This document shows, in pieces, positions 1 through 56,900 of a stretch of DNA of 64,000 nt. The notes under the pieces were generated by a model that did not search any database, was not told the origin of the DNA, and saw only the letters and a program-made list of their open reading frames with translations. This DNA is from Mobula hypostoma. Its lineage: Eukaryota. The first letter of the stretch is position 1. Each line of letters opens with the position of its first letter. The translations under genes were made by a program, and so were the position numbers. The stretch spans positions 34,970,001-35,034,000 of the forward strand of contig NC_086097.1 of NCBI RefSeq assembly GCF_963921235.1, read 5' to 3'.

Positions 1-403
1 CCACATGTGGTTATTTGAGTTACTGTCACTTTCCTGTCAGCATGAACCATCTAGCCACTCTCCTCTGACCTCTCTCATGAACAAGGCTTTTTTGCTGGTC
101 ACCAGATTTTTTTTTTTTTGCTTTTAGCACCATTCTCTGTGAATTCTAGGGACTGTTGTGTGTGAAAATCCCAGGAGATCAGCAGTTTCTGAAATAGTCA
201 AACCATTCCATCTGGCACCAGCATTGTCAAAATCACTTGGATCACATTTCTTCCCCATTCTGATGTTTGGTTTAAACAACAACTGTACCTCTTGGCTATG
301 TCTGTATGCTTTTATGAATTGAGTTCCTACCACATGATTGGCTGATAAGATATTTGCATTCACAAGCAGGTGTACAGGTGTACCTAATAAAGTGGCCAGA
401 GTG
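1..403 (-). mobile_element. Tc1/mariner non-autonomous element (MITE with transposase HTH remnant), truncated by window edge
   Basis: ORF 124-363(-) contains MGKKCDPSDFD..GAR..GLTISETADLLGFSHTTV.RIHREW, a Tc1 transposase N-terminal HTH; TIR tacctaataaagtggccagagtg followed by TA at 404-405; three more copies in the window. Confidence 0.85.
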
Positions 404-1441: not shown

Positions 1442-4110
1442 CTTTTTTAAACAATATTTTTATTGAATTTTACATATATTTCACATATACAAATAAACAA
1501 TAATAATAATTAAACTAAATAGTGAAACATGTCCTCATGTTTTTCACAATCATTAAAGGAAAAGAAATATAACATTTCACATACTTCACATATTTAACAA
1601 AGAAATAAAATAAAAACACATCAGAAAAAAAAAACCGTAGAAGCACTCACCAACACCCAGCTATTTCAAAATGACTGTGCACCTTGACGTCCAAGAAACT
1701 CCAATAAGGGTTTCCACACATTTTCAAATTCTCCTGCCCTTCCTCTAGTTATGTAAGTCAGTCTCTCCAATACAATACAAGATGCCATCTCCTTCACCCA
1801 TACCTGTACTGAAGGTATATCCATTTTTCTCCAAGATAAAACTATCATCCTCCTGGCCTGCAGGAGTCCGAAGTCAATTAAAATTGACTGTTTTGAACTA
1901 ACAGTAAAGTTCTTTGGATATATATACCTATTACAAACATTTTTGCTTGGTGAGGCACCTTTACTCCAACAATCTCAGATATAGTCTGAACAACTGTTTT
2001 CCAGTATTTTTTTTAATTTTGGACAGTCCCATACACAGTGAAACAGAGTACCCTTTTCTGCTAAACATTTAACACAAGTGTCCGGGTTGTCAGGGGACCA
2101 ATGGTTCAGTTTGACCGGGGTAATATAAGTTCTCATTAACCATTTGTATTGCAATAGCTTCATTCTTGTATTAATTGATTGTTTTTGGGCTTTTAAGCAT
2201 GCCATTTCCCACTCAGTTTCTTGCATGTCCTCTTGAACATCCAGTATCCATCCCTCTAGCCTGTCAATGGTGGACTCCTTATCATATGACATCAAAGCTG
2301 TATAGAACAAAGAAATCTGACTCCTCCCCTTTAGGTTTAGAAGTATGAGATTTTCAAGATGTGATATTGGTGGTTCAGATATTAAATGCCTATATTTTGA
2401 TAGTATGAAATGTTTCAGTTGCAAATATTTAAAAAAGTGTTTTTTAGGAATATGGTATGTCTGACATAATTGATCAAATGTAATAAGATTACCATTCATA
2501 TAAAGGTCCTCTATTTTTTGCACACCTTTGTCTGCCCAGATTCTGAAACCACCATCTGCTCTTCCTGCCCTGAAGTATGTATTGCCCCATACTGGGGAGA
2601 AGTGAGAAATGGGAGGAGTATCTTTAATATGCTGATGTGCTTTATACCAGATGTCAATAGTATTTTTGAGGAAAGGGTTCTCAGTTGTTCTTTTCAGATT
2701 TCTTGGGTCTGCAGAGTATATATAGAGCTTTAATGGGAGGTTTGATACTGATGCCTGTTCAATATTCACCCAGGCTGGAAGGGCCTCCATTGAGAAATAA
2801 AACATTGCAGAACGTAACTGGGCAGACCAATAATACCATTTCAGGTTCGGAGGTCGTAGCCCTCCCCTTTCATAAGGCAGGTACAGCAGCCTAAGTCTCA
2901 GTCTAGATGTTTTATTATTCCAAATGAATTTACTAAAAACACTATTAAGCTTATCAAAAAATGATTTTGGTAGTGGGAGAGGAAGTGCTTGAAAAAGGTA
3001 TAGAAATTTTGGTAATATATTCATTTTGATCATATTTATACGACCAATCATTGATATGGGCATTGTTATCCATCGATCCAACGTCTCCTTCACTTTACCC
3101 ACTAGTGGATCATAGTTTGCTGGGACGATCGTTTAAACTTCAGGAGTAATTTTGACACCAAGGTAGGTAAATCCTTCCTTTGCATTTATAAATGGGGTTT
3201 TTACGACTGGTTTCAATATTTCTTCTTTGTTCAAAAATAGTACTGATGATTTTGAATTGTTAATGTTATAACCAAAGAACTGCCCAAACAATTCAATCTG
3301 TTGCATTATGTTTGGAATACTGATGGATAAATTTGTTAAAAAAAAGAATCACGTCGTCAGCATATAAGGATATTCTATGTTCCTGTTCTCCAAGCTGGAT
3401 GCCCGACAGGCCTGTTTGCGTTCTTATTGCCATAGCCAGGGGTTCTATGGCCAGTATAAACAGCATCGGTGACAAAGGACATCACTGGCGAGTAGATTGC
3501 TCCAAGATGACTGGATTAGAAAATATACTACAGGTATTTGTTAAGACACTGGCTATTGGATTTGTATATAAAATCTGAATCCATTTAAGGAAGTGCTTTC
3601 CAAATCCAAATCTAGGTAATACATTAAATGAATATGGCCCATTCTATTCTATCGAAGGCCTGCTGAGCATCCGGTGATAATACTGCTGTATCTTTAGCGT
3701 CAAACTTTTCACGAATTATGTTAAGAACTCTTCTGATATTATGGAATCCTTGGCATTTTTGTACAAAACCATTCTGATTATTATGAACTAGAGGTGGATA
3801 TAAGGATCTAATCTTCTTGCTAAGGCTTTACAAAGTATTTTTGTGTCCGATCCAATTAGACTTATCGGTCTAAATGAGGGACATTCTGTAGGTGGTTTGC
3901 CCGGTTTCAAGATCAGTGTTATCACTGCCAGCCTTAAAGAGGGTGGGAGAGTTCCATTCCGATAAGATACATCATACATATTTAAGAGTGGGACCAGTAA
4001 TTTTTCTTGTAATGTTTTGTAGAATTCAATTGGTAGGCCGTTAATATTTTGGATAGCCTGTGTTATCTCTTCAATTGTTATGCCTCTATCTAACTCCTTT
4101 TTTTGCATCT
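1442..4110 (-). mobile_element. 5'-truncated, frameshifted L1-clade LINE (ORF2 RT and C-terminal remnant)
   Basis: Minus ORFs give FRPISL..SDTKILCKALARRL (3788-4108), [13 protein letters not shown]...ISLYADDV (3293-3475), GRINMIKMNILPKFLYLFQ...GGL..PNL..YYW and C..C...GTLFHCVWDC (1975-3102); AATAAA on minus at 1459-1464 next to a T-run. Confidence 0.93.
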
Positions 4111-4283
4111 TTGGCTTCCAGTAGCCTTAGACTTATTTCTGCATTATAGAATAAAGGATGTGTAGTTAATTCACATGACTAGCTGTCAAACATGAAGCAG
4201 AGAGTTGCAGTAGAAGGTTATTGAGAATGACTGTACTCTGGAATAGGGGCCCCACAAGAATTAGAACTGAGGTCTCTTTTGGT

Positions 4284-5193
4284 TGTTACATGCTCAAGGA
4301 GATCTGTTTTTTTTTGTGAGAATGATGTAATGGTCTTTTGGAGGTCACCTGATGTGATTTTCCCGCCGATGAGGTCACGTGATGACATGTGCCCCGTGAC
4401 TATATAAAGGTCAATCCAGGTGACACAGGTTTTTTTTTTAGTTTGTAGATTTCCAGGTAGAATGTGCTGTATCTCCGTTTCTGTTGCGTGTTTGTTTTTT
4501 TGGTGACACAGTTTCATTTTTAAAATGGAGTGTGCGTTCTGTTGCAAAATACCATATTATTTAGACTGGAAATTTTTGCTAGATGTGTTGATTTACTCAA
4601 TTCCAACATTAGAAGGGAGAGTGAAGAATTTATCGAAGTTACAGGATCGAAGGATCAAGAGGAGTCGGCATCATTTGGCAGTTTAATAAAGGATCGACCT
4701 TATTGTATCTTCGTTGGAGGAGTAGCTACCTGCATCGAGATAACTCTTGCCAAAAAGAGCAGGGAGTTCATGCAAAAAGGTGATCTCTCCCTCTCTCTCT
4801 CTCTCTCTAAAGGAATTTAAGGTCAGTTGATTTAAACTGGTTATTTTTGGCATCGTGAATCCTGTGGACAGAACCAGCAGTAAAGTTGCGTCTGTGAAGA
4901 AATCCTTCTCCAGAGAAGTCTCTCCCAATTGAACGTGTAGATCGGTTGGACCTTCGAAGTTATCGCTTTAAGAACTATATTTGACTTTATCGCTTTAAGA
5001 ACTGTTTTTGCATTTAACGCTTTAAGAACCAGACCCAAGTGGCGAGTTGGTGAACAGCTGCATATCTGTTAACTTCTGGTTAAAGTTTTCGTTTGTTTTT
5101 TTTTTCCTTATCGTTTATCTGTGTTTAATAAATGTTTGGTTGTTTTTATATAACCTGCCTCGATTGATATTCATTGTTGCTGGTTACGTAACA
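4284..5193 (+). mobile_element. Solo LTR (910 bp)
   Basis: Starts TGTTAC, ends GTAACA (6-bp inverted termini); 4-bp TSD tggt at 4280-4283 and 5194-5197; TATATAAA at 4401; AATAAA at 5127-5132. Confidence 0.85.
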
Positions 5194-27909: not shown

Positions 27910-28098
27910 AGACCGATTCTTGATCCTCCTTACGTTGAAGCATACCACCGGGTCTGTACCTACAACGAAACCAGGTTCGTCACGGTGAAACTACCCAACT
28001 GCCACGCTGACGTCGATCCATTCTACACCTACCCGGTCGCAGTGCGGTGCGACTGTGGCATTTGCTCAACTACAACCACCGAGTGCGAGACCTTGTAA
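27910..28098 (+). CDS. GPHB5: Glycoprotein hormone beta-5, last coding exon
   Basis: gcctccag|[65 protein letters not shown]; phase 0 matches the upstream donor; 10 Cys in total, NET sequon; spliced product 135 aa. Confidence 0.97.
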
Positions 28099-28718: not shown

Positions 28719-30226
28719 GTATGTCCTGCCTTGGTTTATCTTCCCTAACCACACCGAGTTGTGACCTGTCTCCGTTATATTCCATCTGCCGATTCCTGGA
28801 GAAGGGCAAAGAGACAAGGAGAAAGGCAGGTTGAGCAAGAGGAAAATATAGAGGAGTGTAGGAAAGGTGATGGGTTGAGGAGGATAAATGGAATCACAGC
28901 CAAAGAAGGAGAGCATGGATTGCAAACTCTGACGTGAATCACTTTTTATTCTGAGTCGGGAAATCCAAATTCTGTCCCATTGGGTTAATAGCATAACTGA
29001 AGCTCAAAATAAGAGTTTTTTTCCTGGCTTAGAATCTGGGCAGATATTGGTGACAAAGTTTTGAGTGAGAAGAGGAAAATTGTGTTAATTGAGCATTAAC
29101 ATGTCCTACAATTCTGAAAAAAATCTGACTGGTCCTGAGTCTCCAATCACATCCTTCAGCTTTCAGTAGAGATACATGTAGCAGTGGCACCTGCTGGCCA
29201 GGTTTTGAACTGCATGCGCCTTTGAACAATCAGAACAGAAATATGCACAACTTTCGCTGTTACTGGAAACCCTACATTCCATCCTCTGGATGCATGGCAA
29301 TCATTTATCTGTTTAAACAATCAGAGAGAATAATTTTCTTATTCTATTATAAAACAGGACATGCAAATAAGAATAAATACATACATCGAAAGCAAAATTG
29401 AAAGAGAGAAAGAAAGGGTGATCAGAGAAAGAAGGACAATGAAAGAGACAAAAGAGTAAAATAAATTAAAATTGCTAATTTAAAAGCATTTTCAAATATA
29501 GACATGATCTGAAGGAATGAGGTTCCACACCCATTGAAATTAATTTCCAGTGCCAGAAAGATTCAGAGGGTTAAATTTTGCTTAGACTGCAACAGCTCCA
29601 ACCTTTACTCAAGCAACACACATCAAAGTTGCTGGTGAACACAGCAGGCCAGGCAGCATCTCTAGGAAGAGGTACAGTCGACGTTTCGGCCTGGAACCCT
29701 TCGTCAGGACTAACTGAAGGAAGAGCTAGTAAGAGATTTGAAAGTGGGAGGGGGAGGGGGAGATCTGAAATGATAGGAGAAGACAGGAGGGGGAGGGATA
29801 GAGCCAAGAGCTGGACCGGTGATTGGCAAAAGGGATATGAGAGGATCATGGGACAGGAAGCCCGGGGAGAAAGAAAAGGGGGAGGAGGGGGGAAGCCCAG
29901 GGGATGGGCAAGGAGTATAGTGAGAGGGGACAGAGGGAGAAAAAAGAGAGAGAGAGAGAAAAATAATAATAAATAAATAAATAGGGGATGGGGTAAGAAG
30001 GGGAGGTGGGGCATTAATGGAAGTTAGAGAAATCAATGTTCATCCTCTGGGTTTTCCCCCCTTTCTTTCTCCCTGGACCTCCTGTCCCATGATCCTCTCA
30101 TATCCCTTTTGCCTATCACCTGTCCGGCTCTTGGCTCCATCGCTCCCCCTCCTGTCTTCTCCTATCATTTTGGATCTCCCCCTCCCCCTCCCACTTCCAA
30201 ATCTCTTACTAACTCTTCCTTCAGTT

Positions 30227-30262
30227 AGTCCTGACGAAGGGTCTCGGCCTGAAACGTCGACT
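30227..30262 (+). ncRNA. Minimal type I hammerhead ribozyme motif (5' pLTR)
   Basis: AGTC-CTGACGA-AGGGTCTCGGCCT-GAAAC-GTC-GACT. Confidence 0.8.
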
Positions 30263-31522
30263 GTACCTCTTCCTAGAGATGCTGCCTGGCCTGCTGCCTT
30301 CTCTCTGTCTCTGGAGACAGCTTATCCACTGATGTCTACTATAAGCCTACTGACTCTCACAGCTATCTGGACTATTCCTCTTCTCACCCTGTCTCTTGCA
30401 AAAACGCCATCCCCTTCTCGCAATTCCTCCGTCTCCGCCGCATCTGCTCTCAGGATGAGGTTTTTCATTCTAGGACGAGGGAGATGTCTTCCTTTTTTTA
30501 AAGAAAGGGGCTTCCCTTCCTCCACTATCAACTCTGCTCTTAAACGCATCTCCCCCATTTCACGTACATCTGCTCTCACTCCATCCTCCCACCACCCCAC
30601 TAGGAATAGGGTTCCCCTGGTCCTCACCTACCACCCCACCAGCCTCCGGGTCCAACATATTATTCTCCGCAACTTTCGCCACCTCCAACGGGATCCCACC
30701 ACTAAGCACATCTTTCCCTCCCCCCCTCTCTCTGCATTCCGCAGGGATCGCTCCCTACGCAACTCCTTTGTCCATTCGTCCCCCCCATCCCTCCCCACTG
30801 ATCTCCCTCCTGGCACTTATCCGTGTAAGCGGAACAAGTGCTACACATGCCCTTACACTTCCTCCCTTACCACCATTCAGGGCCCCAAACAGTCCTTCCA
30901 GGTGAGGCATCACTTCACCTGTGAGTCGACTGGGGTGATATACTGCGTCCGGTGCTCCCGATGTGGCCTTTTATATATTGGTGAGACCCGACGCAGACTG
31001 GGAGACCGCTTTGCTGAACATCTACGCTCTGTCCGCCAGAGAAAGCAGGATCTCCCAGTGGCCACACATTTTAATTCCACATCCCATTCCCATTCTGACA
31101 TGTCTATCCATGGCCTCCTCTACTGTAAAGATGAAGCCACACTCAGGTTGGAGGAACAACACCTTATATTCCGTCTGGGTAGCCTCCAACCTGATGGCAT
31201 GAACATCGACTTCTCTAACTTCCGCTAAGGCCCCACCTCCCCCTCGTACCCCATCTGTTACTTATTTTTATGCACACATTCTTTCTCTCACTCTCCTTTT
31301 TCTCCCTCTGTCCCTCTGAATATACCTCTTGCCCATCCTCTGGGTCACCCCCCCCCTTGTCTTTCTTCCCGGACCTCCTGTCCCATGATCCTCTTGTATC
31401 CCTTTTGCCTATCACCTGTCCAGCTCTCGGCTCTATCCCTCCCCCTCCTGTCTTCTTCTATCATTTTGGATCTCCCCCTCCCCCTCCTACTTTCAAATCC
31501 CTTACTCACTCTTCCTTCAGTT

Positions 31523-50983: not shown

Positions 50984-51798
50984 AGTGTGTAAAAGTCTTT
51001 GGCACACATATATATAGCCAGGGTGCTGAAGACTTTTTCATGGTACTGTAGTAATTTTATGTGTTGGACTGTACCGCTGTCACAAAAGAAAACAAATTTC
51101 ATGACATATGTGAGTGATGACAAAGCTGATTCTGATGTGGGTCTCTACTGTGGACTGAGAGTGGGAAGGAGGCAGGGCGAGGGGAATCCTGGTTGGGAAA
51201 AGGGGAAGGGAAAGGGAAAGGGGAGGGAGTGGGAAGGACCCGAGGGACATTCTGTAATGATCAATAAGCCATTTGTTTGGAATCAAATGACCTTCCCTCA
51301 TGTCTCAGGGCTGGGTGTCTCCACACCTACCCTTGGCACTCCTTCTCTGTCACCAATCCCACACTCCTCCTGTGGTGCTCTACCCTTGCCATTCCCAACA
51401 TTCTTTGCTCTCACCAGATTTACAGACTCACTCTCTGCTCCACATTGACAAATACAGTACTGTGCAAAAGTCTTAGGCACCCTAGATAGATCTGTATCTA
51501 TCTATAATATCTATATCTTTACCTGGGTATGTGGCCAAGTGGTTAAGGCGTTCGACAAGTGATCTGAAGGTTGCTAGTTCGAGCCTTAGCTGTGGCAGCA
51601 TGTTTGTGTTCTTGAGCAAGGCACTTAACCACACATTGCTCTAGTGTCTGTGCAAGGAGTGGCGTCCCACACAGACTTCCAATCTGCGCCTTGTAAGGCA
51701 TGAAAATGCCCGATGCAGACCTCTCATGGTCTGAGTCAACGTTCCCCTTTATCTCTATCTATCTATATATACATACCTAAGACATTTGCACAGTATGG
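50984..51798. mobile_element. Composite MITE: two CAGTACTGTG hairpin units flanking ~400 bp, with a SINE (51525-51747) inside the second unit
   Basis: Four TIR copies (~50984, ending 51048, starting 51455, ending 51798) matching the 47224 mini-MITE. Confidence 0.7.
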
Positions 51799-51904
51799 TA
51801 CAATGTAATACTTAGTAAAAGCAAATTCAATGTAAGAAGTGACTGTTTTAAACTTCCTGCTGACACGGGCTTTTGAAAAAGTTTTGATAGTTTCATGAAG
51901 TTTA

Positions 51905-52920: not shown

Positions 52921-53035
52921 GAGAACTCTTCATGTGGAAGATTTCTTTACCCCAGAGGATTGCAGTTGCCTAGTACATTCATTGAAGATGCCACACATTA
53001 GGCTTGCTTGATGGACAAAATTAGGTGGGGAAATA

Positions 53036-53981
53036 CAGTTGAAAACAGAAGTTTACATACACCTTAGCCAAATACATTTAAACTCAGTTTTTCACAATTC
53101 CTGACATTTAATCCTAGAAAACTTTCCCTGTCTTAGGTCAATTAGGATCACTACTTTATTTTAAGAAAGTGAAATGTCAGAATAATAGTAGAGAGAATGA
53201 TTTATTTCAGCTTTTATTTCTTTCATCTCTTTCCCAGTGGGTCAGAAGTTTATATACACTTTAAAAATGCAAACATGAGGAAATCTGCAGATGCTGGAAA
53301 TTCAAGCAACACACACAAAATGCTGGTGGAACGCAACATCTATAGGAAGAAGTACAGTCAACGTTTTGGGCCGAGACCCTTTGTCAGGACTAACTGAAAG
53401 AAGAGATAGTAAGAGATTTGGAAGTGGGAGGGGGAGGGGGAGATCATTTCTGATCCCTTCTTCCTATAGATGCTGCCTGGCCTGCTGCGTTCCACCAGCA
53501 TTTTGTGTGTGTTGTTTACATACACTTTGTTAGTATTTGGTAGCATTGCCTTTAAATTGTTTAACTTGGGTCAAACGTTTTGTGTTGCCTTCCACAAGCC
53601 TCTCACAGCAAGTTGCTGGAATTTTGTTCCATTCCTCCAGACAGAACTGGTGTAACTGAGTCAGGTTTGTAGGCCTCCTTGCTCGCACATGCTTTTTCAA
53701 TTCTGCCCACAAATTTTCTATTGTTTGACCCAAGTTAAACAATTTAAAGGCAATGCTACCAAATACTAACAAAGTGTATGTAAACTTCTGACCCACTGGG
53801 CAAGTGATGAAAGAAATAAAAGCTGAAATAAATCATTCTCTCTATTATTATTCTGACATTTCACATTCTTAAAATAATGATCCTAACTGACCTAAGACAG
53901 GGAATGTTTTCATCAGGAATTGTGAAAAACTGAGTTTAAATGCATTTGGCTAAGGTGTATGTAAACTTCTGACTTCAACTG
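53036..53981. mobile_element. Sleeping Beauty-like (IR/DR Tc1, DD34E) fold-back non-autonomous element
   Basis: TA-flanked; CAGTTGAA termini; long IRs each with outer and inner DR (cagaagtttacatacac); transposase C-terminus IENLWAELKK...RLTQVKQFKGNATKY* at 53530-53721(-). Confidence 0.93.
53263..53513 (-). mobile_element. Penelope pLTR fragment inserted in the inner DR of the SB-like element
   Basis: 15-bp TSD gtttaYatacacttt at 53248-53262 and 53514-53528. Confidence 0.88.
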
Positions 53982-56900
53982 TAAATGAATTTTCATCATC
54001 TTCAGAGTACAATCAGTCATGTGCTCCAAAGTTCAATGTTTAGACATCAGCTATTTACAATCTAGATCAATGACTTGGGTAATGGATCTGAATGCAGTAC
54101 CTAGATAAACTTCTTTGTACTAAAGAATTCAATGGAGTTAGGGACAGAATGTTAAAAATGGGGCTGATATCAATATGTAGCCACTGGCAGAATTTAAGGA
54201 TTGCATGGACAACTAATGCTACTATTCTTAATGCCAGTTTTCATTTTTATTTTATAAATTAGAAATACTTAATTCTGGCAATCTTTATAATCAAAAAAGC
54301 ATTGCGATAAAGCTTAAAATTATTGAGGCTAGATTTACCAAAGCAAAGACAGACAACATAGATTAGTGCTGGATGTTTTAACATTCACCTACTGGTCTCT
54401 GTACTGTACTTAAAATTAGTTATGCATGTTAATGGAAATCAAGATTTGAATGGTCATCACCCTGCTGTTTATCAGCATTTTAAAATATAAACTGTACCGG
54501 GAAAACAAGTTAACATTGTGCAGTCAGCGCAATGCAATGGTTTTTCTGTTGAAATAGGTTTTCTGCATGTGAAAGGATAAAGAATGAATATGTAAGCAAA
54601 TTATTTATTTGAAAACCCATTTCTATCTGTATTGTGTTTGCTTTAATGGTTAAGATTCATCTTGCCAAAGTTTCTGTAATTCTGCCAAAGGATGATATGA
54701 AAGTTGAGAACAAAAGACTGCCAGGCAGATGTATCCAATAAACTTTTACTTTCATCGAAAAATGCACAAATTAAACAAAATTAAACATATACAGCCATTG
54801 CTATTAATACAGCAATACTTGAATTTGTTGCATAGAAATTAAAAGGAAATATGGGATTACTTACAAGTTGTAATCTGCACTTTAATAATATTAAACCATG
54901 TGAAATTTGCACTTCTACTGGTTTCAAGATATTGCTGCTTCTGAAATTTTAATACCTGCATTTACCCAATATATGGAAACAATATTAAGGCACTAACAAG
55001 ATGTAACTGGATACTGCAAGCAAAAATGATCAACCATACCAGAAATTCCTATCGCAAATTCCACCCAGTTAAACTGTAGCTATTTTCCAACATTTACGCC
55101 ATACAAGACTTCAGGAGTGTTTCGCTGTGATAATGAAAAACCTTTACATTGACATTATCGTAATGTCAAGTGCATCTGCTCTTACATTGTGACTGAAAAC
55201 TGATTGTAGAAATTAAAGTCCAGAAGATTTAGATCTTAGCAATATACAGTACGATTGTTGAACCATTTGGTTAGATGTCAGGTCAGTGGTACATTCCCAT
55301 TTAACAGCTTGAAGAATATATGAAGGTTTATTAACAATACAATTCTGCTTCAACATACAATAACAGCACACAGGTGATATTATATTAACAACACATTTTA
55401 ACTATAATTCATCCATTTATATGGTGGAAAAAAAGTTACCCGATATATTTTAAAACCTGCTTGTCTTTTGATTACCCTGATTTCTAACTAATTTAACTCC
55501 TAGAACTAGCATTTTTAAGCAGTGACATGAAACTTTTAAAAGCCAAATGCACTCTCCTACCAGGTCAATTTCTGCAAGCACAACTAATGTTCTAATTGGT
55601 TGTGTAACAAAAACACTGAATTTTGTTTGGAAACTTAAAAGAATGCCAATGAGGATCAGCAATTTGATAATAGATGTGAAGTAAAATTCCCATTAAACCA
55701 AATAGAATTTATCAGTAATATTTATAAAGAAACACTATCCAGGAAATCAAAACAATTCTTACAAGGAAAATGGAACCAGGTAACTGTGAATTTAACTCAA
55801 AGTGCATTTTTTTCAGAAATCAATTTCAAATCTATGGTTCATAATTCTAGTGTGTTGCAACAGGTAAAACAGGAAATACACAGCAGTTGGGCAGCATCTA
55901 TGGAGACAGAAAACAGGTTAAGAGTTTCCACAAAGTCCTTTTGCAAGATGCTTCCTCTTCACAGATTTTATCTGACCAGTTGAGGAGTTCCAAAAAAAAA
56001 GCTTTTTATTTTAAATTTTAGCCTCCTCAGTAGTGTGCTTTAATACATAAAAGTGTTTAGTTATTGTAGACACAATCCTCTGTAGAGTAAAATTGGAAAA
56101 TAAATCAAATGCGTAAAGTGTTATGTTAATGTCAGTTACATAAAACATTGTCAGTTAAAACTGAGTTGAGGTTAGTATCATTACAGATTTTATTTTAGCA
56201 AAAATCAAAACTTATAATCGAACTTCTATTCGTCTGTTTGATATTTGTTTAAAAGGATTAATACACTGTATAATTGGTAATTAATACTTGAGAGGAGAAT
56301 TGACATTATAAGAGAGTGCCTCTAATTTGCTGTTACAGCTGATTTATGGAGTCATTTATTTAAAAAAAGGAGTAGTGGAGAGATCCAGCAAAGGAGTCCC
56401 AGCAAAGAGATCCTTCAAAAACACCTTCATATTAGCACAGGCCCAGTTCTAAACTGCAGCAGATACCAAACCATGCTGACACAGCTGGACAGCTTTTTTG
56501 CCCAGTAATAGGCTGTCTCAACGTTTACCAACAGGAGAGTAGATCACTAAAAAGATTAAGTGTGCTTTTCAACAAAGCATTCAGACATACATATGCAATT
56601 CTAGAGTAACTATACCACGCATGCTTTGAAGTTACATCCTGAGTGAAATTATACTGTAAATCTGGAGTGGAGCCAAACAAATTCTCAATTTATCTGATTA
56701 ATTTATTGGCTCTTACCTTCAGATAATTACTGGTTTCTAAGCTAACAAAATACGGGCAACTATTATAGAATGACACGTTATCCTTTTCAAGAACAGAAAA
56801 CTATTTGAATATTCACAGAATCTGCATAGGTGTTATGAGAATACTACAACTATTCCTGACTAAACTAGTTTTTGGAAGACTCTGGAGATTTAAGGTGAAC

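Follow-up and report, generated by a model that had tools for sequence, protein, structure and literature searches.

The 64-kb stretch of DNA analysed here (hereafter the window) harbors an element that we read, with considerable confidence, as an inactive, internally deleted and two-right-ended member of the Sleeping Beauty (SB) clade of Tc1 transposons in a myliobatiform ray, the family of which likely entered horizontally from a bony-fish SB lineage. Transfers of Tc1 elements between fishes are common and well documented, and the type of event is ordinary; the new parts are the ray host group and the layout of the ends.

Anatomy of the element and its transposase remnant

The element is the sole SB-like sequence within the window and occupies positions 53036–53981 (Table 1). 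An earlier note, made from the letters alone, had described it as TA-flanked with IR/DR ends, and both the coordinates and the flanks are as claimed there. What that note overlooked is that the 53036 end, too, is an IR of the right type, and that 251 bp of the interior, beside one inner DR, are a ray repeat unrelated to the SB element. The two IRs measure 225 and 209 nt and each holds an inner and an outer DR, in agreement with the ~220–230 bp that are a trait of the SB clade. When aligned to each other, the ends match at 198 of 209 bases, with 11 mismatches and gaps of 5 and 11 nt; the letters deleted from the 53773–53981 IR (5 + 11 nt) occur in other contig copies of the family, and the outer DR of the 53036–53260 end carries two private substitutions. 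The left IR and its half-DR enhancer are missing from the window copy, both ends being right-type, and the element minus the nested repeat amounts to 680 bp with both ends retained. The arms at 53514–53576 and 53723–53785 are 100% complementary over 63 nt, and the strong fold-back of the element (z = −33) arises because the arms are inverted and reflects nothing more. Long TIRs overlapping the end of the ORF as the ordinary state of SB, a partial TIR/ORF overlap being mentioned for SB in the available text of Jia et al. 2022 (PMC9777934), were rejected as an explanation, since the left and right IRs of salmon clearly differ.

Table 1 Features of the element and other annotated features of the window
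Feature	Position	Strand	Basis or remark
GPHB5 (glycoprotein hormone beta-5), last exon; marker of the host, not part of the element	27910–28098	+	Pfam, protein comparison
Frame ending in GIY-YIG domain, 415 aa	29981–31228	+	E = 3.4e-4, just under Pfam's cut-off
TA target-site duplication, left	53034–53035	.	Sequence
Right-type SB IR/DR, inverted, 225 nt; occupies the place of the absent left end	53036–53260	-	
15-nt target duplication, copy 1 (14/15 identical); overlaps inner DR	53248–53262	.	From nested insertion
Nested ray repeat with inverted tail; likely Penelope-like terminal-repeat fragment	53263–53513	.	
15-nt target duplication, copy 2	53514–53528	.	
Inverted transposase codons 278–340 + stop; 63 aa including E279	53530–53721	-	
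Deletion junction of the window copy, inverted arm/forward arm	53721–53722	.	Relatives diverge at the same point
Forward transposase remnant, codons 326–340 + stop	53722–53769	+	
Right IR/DR, 209 nt; lacks 5 + 11 nt relative to 225 nt	53773–53981	+	
TA target-site duplication, right	53982–53983	.	Host reads connect it to single-copy flank

The transposase remnant is a 63-residue peptide read on the minus strand from 53721 to 53533. The earlier note had counted 52 of these 63 residues, including the catalytic E, as shared with SB, and the same count was obtained against the transposase of pT2/Gene-Trap (AFR53956.1), in which the peptide begins at I278-E279 and its catalytic E is E279. A PDB search with the peptide returned a single match, SB100X in 5CR4 (E = 1.5e-27), which together with the 52/63 count and the identity to salmon Tss1 given below supports the placement in the SB subfamily that had been proposed. 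A start codon and upstream transposase coding sequence are absent before the peptide, so what is left of the transposase in the element is codons 278–340 (inverted) and 326–340 (forward), with E279 as the only catalytic residue. The peptide, an untranslatable relic, belongs to a 3′-end segment duplicated in inverted orientation, the element encodes no transposase, and the window copy as a whole is an inactive, non-autonomous relic with two right ends, unlike the usual left/right SB.

The nested repeat has matches of 74–92% elsewhere in the window and is very deep in the contigs of organisms A–D (organisms A–F denote coded sequencing sets, where A is the contig set that matched the window best). 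Because some of its relatives adjoin the GIY-YIG frame at 29981–31228, the repeat, like the frame itself, is likely Penelope-like. Among the other features of the window, 51453–51800 is a second, small element flanked by TA, which has inverted ends of 25 nt (88%) and an apparent tRNA-type SINE inside, with a related pair of ends at ~50986–51050. On the minus strand, 1666–4556 holds broken ORF2-like frames of a non-LTR retrotransposon, L1/Tx1-like by eye, for which no Pfam match was found at 0.01.

The host and the distribution of the family

A Pfam scan covering 150 of the 232 candidate frames of the window, with one added, found the cystine-knot exon of GPHB5. Its 62 residues are identical in Mobula birostris, M. 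hypostoma and Hypanus sabinus (62/62) and nearly so in Hemitrygon (61/62), while the count falls to 47–55/62 in other batoids (Pristis 55/62, three skates 47–54/62), 47–50/62 in four sharks and 43–47/62 in four teleosts. Judged from this exon, the host is a myliobatiform ray, which bears out the ray that the earlier note had thought probable. The element itself is truly resident in the ray genome. A ray repeat is nested inside it with a 15-nt duplication; a host contig spans its right end into the single-copy flank (53958–54900, 0 differences, depth 7); and the isoform X3 of TTC33 from Mobula hypostoma (XP_062905703.1) carries the same tail (57 of 63 residues). The possibility of a teleost host or a contaminated contig, which the earlier note had itself set against its reading, is ruled out by the GPHB5 exon, the nested ray repeat and the boundary contig. 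Teleost contamination or mis-assembly is therefore an explanation to which we assign practically no probability, given that a ray repeat inside the element excludes contamination, that the right boundary is spanned by host contigs without mismatch and that the ray-specific residues are common to the Mobula gene model. As regards that gene model in its own right, residues 166–228 of TTC33 isoform X3 are an exonised inverted transposase tail, including the family join described further below.

The family is abundant beyond the window copy. From organism A, 1,393 contigs map to a 421-nt part of the element, and the summed contig depth, which is not a copy number, is 14,000–115,000 in the element vs. 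~7 in its flanks, indicating that the family is high-copy in the host. Organisms B, C, and D have the ray repeat as well as the element, and organism E has ray-type copies of the element, so that the family is seen in organisms A–E and in Mobula. Organism F has 15,021 contigs on the 421 nt, of which 9,417 are at least 95% alike, and carries SB100X-type letters (the L, Q, and G residues and another triplet after the stop). Short derivatives also occur. One of them is shared by organisms C and E, in which position 53721 is joined to 53954, so that from one end just the outermost 28 bp are left next to the transposase tail; the join lies at the same codon in C and E, and two similar single joins were found in A. 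No empty-site joint was seen among the joints listed. Outside animals, no matches to the element were found in plasmids, E. coli genomes, phages, viral contigs, or prokaryote genomes, and a metagenome scan retrieved at least eight distant Tc1 loci at 38–65% identity, which were set aside.

Likeness to salmon Tss1 and a probable horizontal transfer

Our reference was the majority sequence of five complete Tss1 copies from Salmo salar (supplement of PMC6362248), with all comparisons made by eye. The 53036–53260 end matches the majority of the salmon right IR at 213 of 225 positions without gaps, and differs from two individual salmon copies at 13 of 224 and 14 of 225 positions. The 53773–53981 end, which contains the motifs that the earlier note had quoted as closely following the SB right IR/DR, matches at 201 of 209 positions plus the deletions of 5 and 11 nt, and that resemblance thus holds. 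The left and right IRs of salmon Tss1 are distinct from each other, and both ends of the window element match the right one. Within the coding tail, 173 of 189 letters are identical to the salmon majority (16 differences), and only 1 of the 52 codons for the same residue has a synonymous difference. Part of the observed divergence belongs to the window copy and not to its family: according to the host majority letters, ~7 of the 12 IR differences are private decay, as are 5 of the 11 residue differences, where the host majority letters restore the SB residues. Once this decay is removed, the family-level differences from salmon are ~5 of 225 in the IR and 6 of 63 in the residues, and the predicted transposase binding sites of the family are near-identical to those of salmon. 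As to the earlier note's idea that the ends might serve as substrates for SB transposase, the window copy departs from these family sites by its two private changes in one outer DR and by the 5- and 11-nt deletions in the other IR, and it lacks the half-DR enhancer of the left end. At the level of sequence, the likeness of the window ends to the salmon right IR exceeds chance by far.

Silent and spacer sites cannot remain so similar over ~470 million years. In numbers counted by eye, the divergence from salmon is 12/225 in non-coding DNA and 1/52 in synonymous codons, vs. a split between cartilaginous and bony fishes at 473 My in the published tree, as given in the available part of PMC7070016. 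As these sites are too alike for descent over 473 My, we infer horizontal transfer as the best reading. The transfer between teleosts and chondrichthyans that the earlier note had proposed is supported, the identity being incompatible with ~470 My of descent. An alternative would be vertical inheritance from the jawed-vertebrate ancestor, with the element kept by slow elasmobranch rates and selection on its ends, and indeed the DRs are functionally constrained and elasmobranch genomes are slow-evolving. Nevertheless, silent sites should already be saturated along the branch to teleosts by itself, the 1/52 synonymous difference is accompanied by 95% identity (by eye) across the spacer between the DRs over 473 My, and even a constrained host exon, GPHB5, is only 69–76% identical in protein to teleosts; the probability that we leave to vertical inheritance is very slim indeed.

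Concerning the source of the transfer, the 63-aa tail shares 49–52 of 63 residues with SB-clade copies from Salmo, Sparus, and Prochilodus, 37 with a cluster from Nothobranchius, Takifugu, and cichlids, and 34–37 with distant clusters. Over the 63 residues compared, it is nearer to SB than to the sister clades. The ray form has six residues unlike salmon SB, and since its F, P, A, and E recur in Sparus/Prochilodus-type copies, salmonids as donor are unsupported. The full signature, FLNPAE, is found in the window and Mobula only, among 152 tails, and a 63-column tree (read disregarding one outgroup row, P0302) grouped these two at 84/82 and left the rest of the SB clade unresolved. These results leave some room for a transfer in reverse, or via a third carrier such as a parasite or an invertebrate, in which rays and salmonids would both be recipients: the ray form is a subfamily of its own, the tree does not resolve its relatives, and an SB element has been reported in a snail in the text available of PMC9777934. 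However, in the same text 107 of the 108 species with SB are ray-finned fishes; with diversity so concentrated, the simplest source is a bony fish, and we hold the other direction or carrier to be unlikely, albeit deserving of some weight.

A ray host adds cartilaginous fishes to the groups from which the SB clade is recorded. In the available text of Jia et al. 2022 (PMC9777934), SB is recorded from 107 ray-finned fishes and one snail and from none of the Chondrichthyes, for which the entry is one ZB-like element only. Out of six names sought in what is available of Zhang et al. 2020 (PMC7070016), only Callorhinchus and Rhincodon are present, and the accessible portion of PMC12400950 names no cartilaginous fish. 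Our search, with most subscription papers and all of Repbase/Dfam outside it, found no published report of an SB-clade transfer into rays. A Tc1/mariner content of 2.30% in rays vs. 0.14% in sharks is given in PMC12361510, where the text at hand leaves horizontal transfer unmentioned, and the family is a datable candidate for part of this ray expansion. Separately, a primer printed in PMC4551320 is an exact match to the inner DR; the paper does not name SB.

Two right ends and comparison with known systems

The two-right-end structure is established for the window copy and likely for the family. The leading loose end among those listed for the host lies at 53723 (8 contigs, agreement 0.84). 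It quits the transposase 12 letters further on, and what follows agrees with the beginning of the salmon 5′ UTR in 14–15 of 17 letters, which is a short match; the UTR begins ~35 nt inside the left IR, and the two sequences overlap by 3 nt where they join. In-frame translation of this join agrees with the Mobula TTC33 isoform at 7 of the 9 residues ahead of IENLW, and the implied inverted arm is 225 + 3 + 3 + 189 + 14 = 434 bp. Since the host contigs and Mobula TTC33 share the 5′ UTR join, the family master would have had two right ends, which suggests that the amplified family itself may be two-right-ended and the window copy a further deletion. The loose ends listed for organisms C and E run on into normal transposase and are compatible with either architecture.

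It could also be that the transfer is real and the layout a one-off local rearrangement, namely an inverted duplication or a fusion of two adjacent 3′ fragments, which never transposed in this form. Right-right SB constructs are poorly active, and elements with two right ends are expected to move less well given that the left TIR bears the transposition enhancer; moreover, no contig among the pieces listed bridges the window copy's own junction at 53721/53722. On the other hand, both outer ends are flush with TA, and the top listed loose end of the host is a non-transposase join common to the Mobula TTC33 locus. We thus consider a one-off rearrangement quite improbable.

For a family with two right ends, the following history may be proposed. 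An SB-clade element would have reached the ray lineage when rays and bony fishes had long been separate. In one copy an inverted duplicate of ~434 bp from the 3′ end would then have taken the place of the left IR, with a microhomology of 3 nt at its junction with the 5′ UTR, while the UTR and the ORF behind it were maybe kept. This form was likely amplified by cut-and-paste into TA sites, with an SB-type transposase acting in cis or in trans. The window copy would subsequently have lost nearly all of its middle, leaving 680 bp with both ends, before the 251-bp ray repeat inserted beside one inner DR; we infer this order of left-IR replacement and middle deletion. We lean slightly towards the broader view that, after the transfer, an SB with a mirrored right end amplified to thousands of copies in stingray-group rays and spawned short derivatives. 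If true, this would be a natural experiment in which SB-type transposition thrives without the left-end enhancer, possibly with <400 bp between the IRs. The left TIR is reported to hold a non-essential half-DR enhancer, and its duplication to raise activity two- to three-fold, in the available texts of PMC7827188, PMC8151067, PMC5224488, and PMC4505599; the two-right-end layout informs the in vivo role of this enhancer and of the asymmetry of SB ends.

Among known systems, the window element is like Sleeping Beauty/Tss1 (PMC6362248) in its TA duplication and in an IR/DR of ~225 nt with inner and outer DR, and unlike it in lacking the left IR/half-DR and an intact ORF, in its ray host, in six family-level residue differences and in three other bases between the stop codon and the IR. 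Mobula TTC33 isoform X3 agrees with it in the ray-type signature and in the join upstream, but lies at another locus and in a gene model. As far as the accessible text of PMC5224488 describes them, internally deleted zebrafish Tdr1 copies similarly combine IR/DRs with an internal deletion and damaged outer ends, but retain >400 bp between the IRs, whereas in the window element the IRs were ~246 bp apart until the nested repeat inserted, and they are both right-type. Finally, the teleost–lamprey transfers in the part available of PMC3516227 likewise concern fish Tc1 elements crossing classes, although they involve a different Tc1 group, which was not amplified there from the cartilaginous fishes tested.
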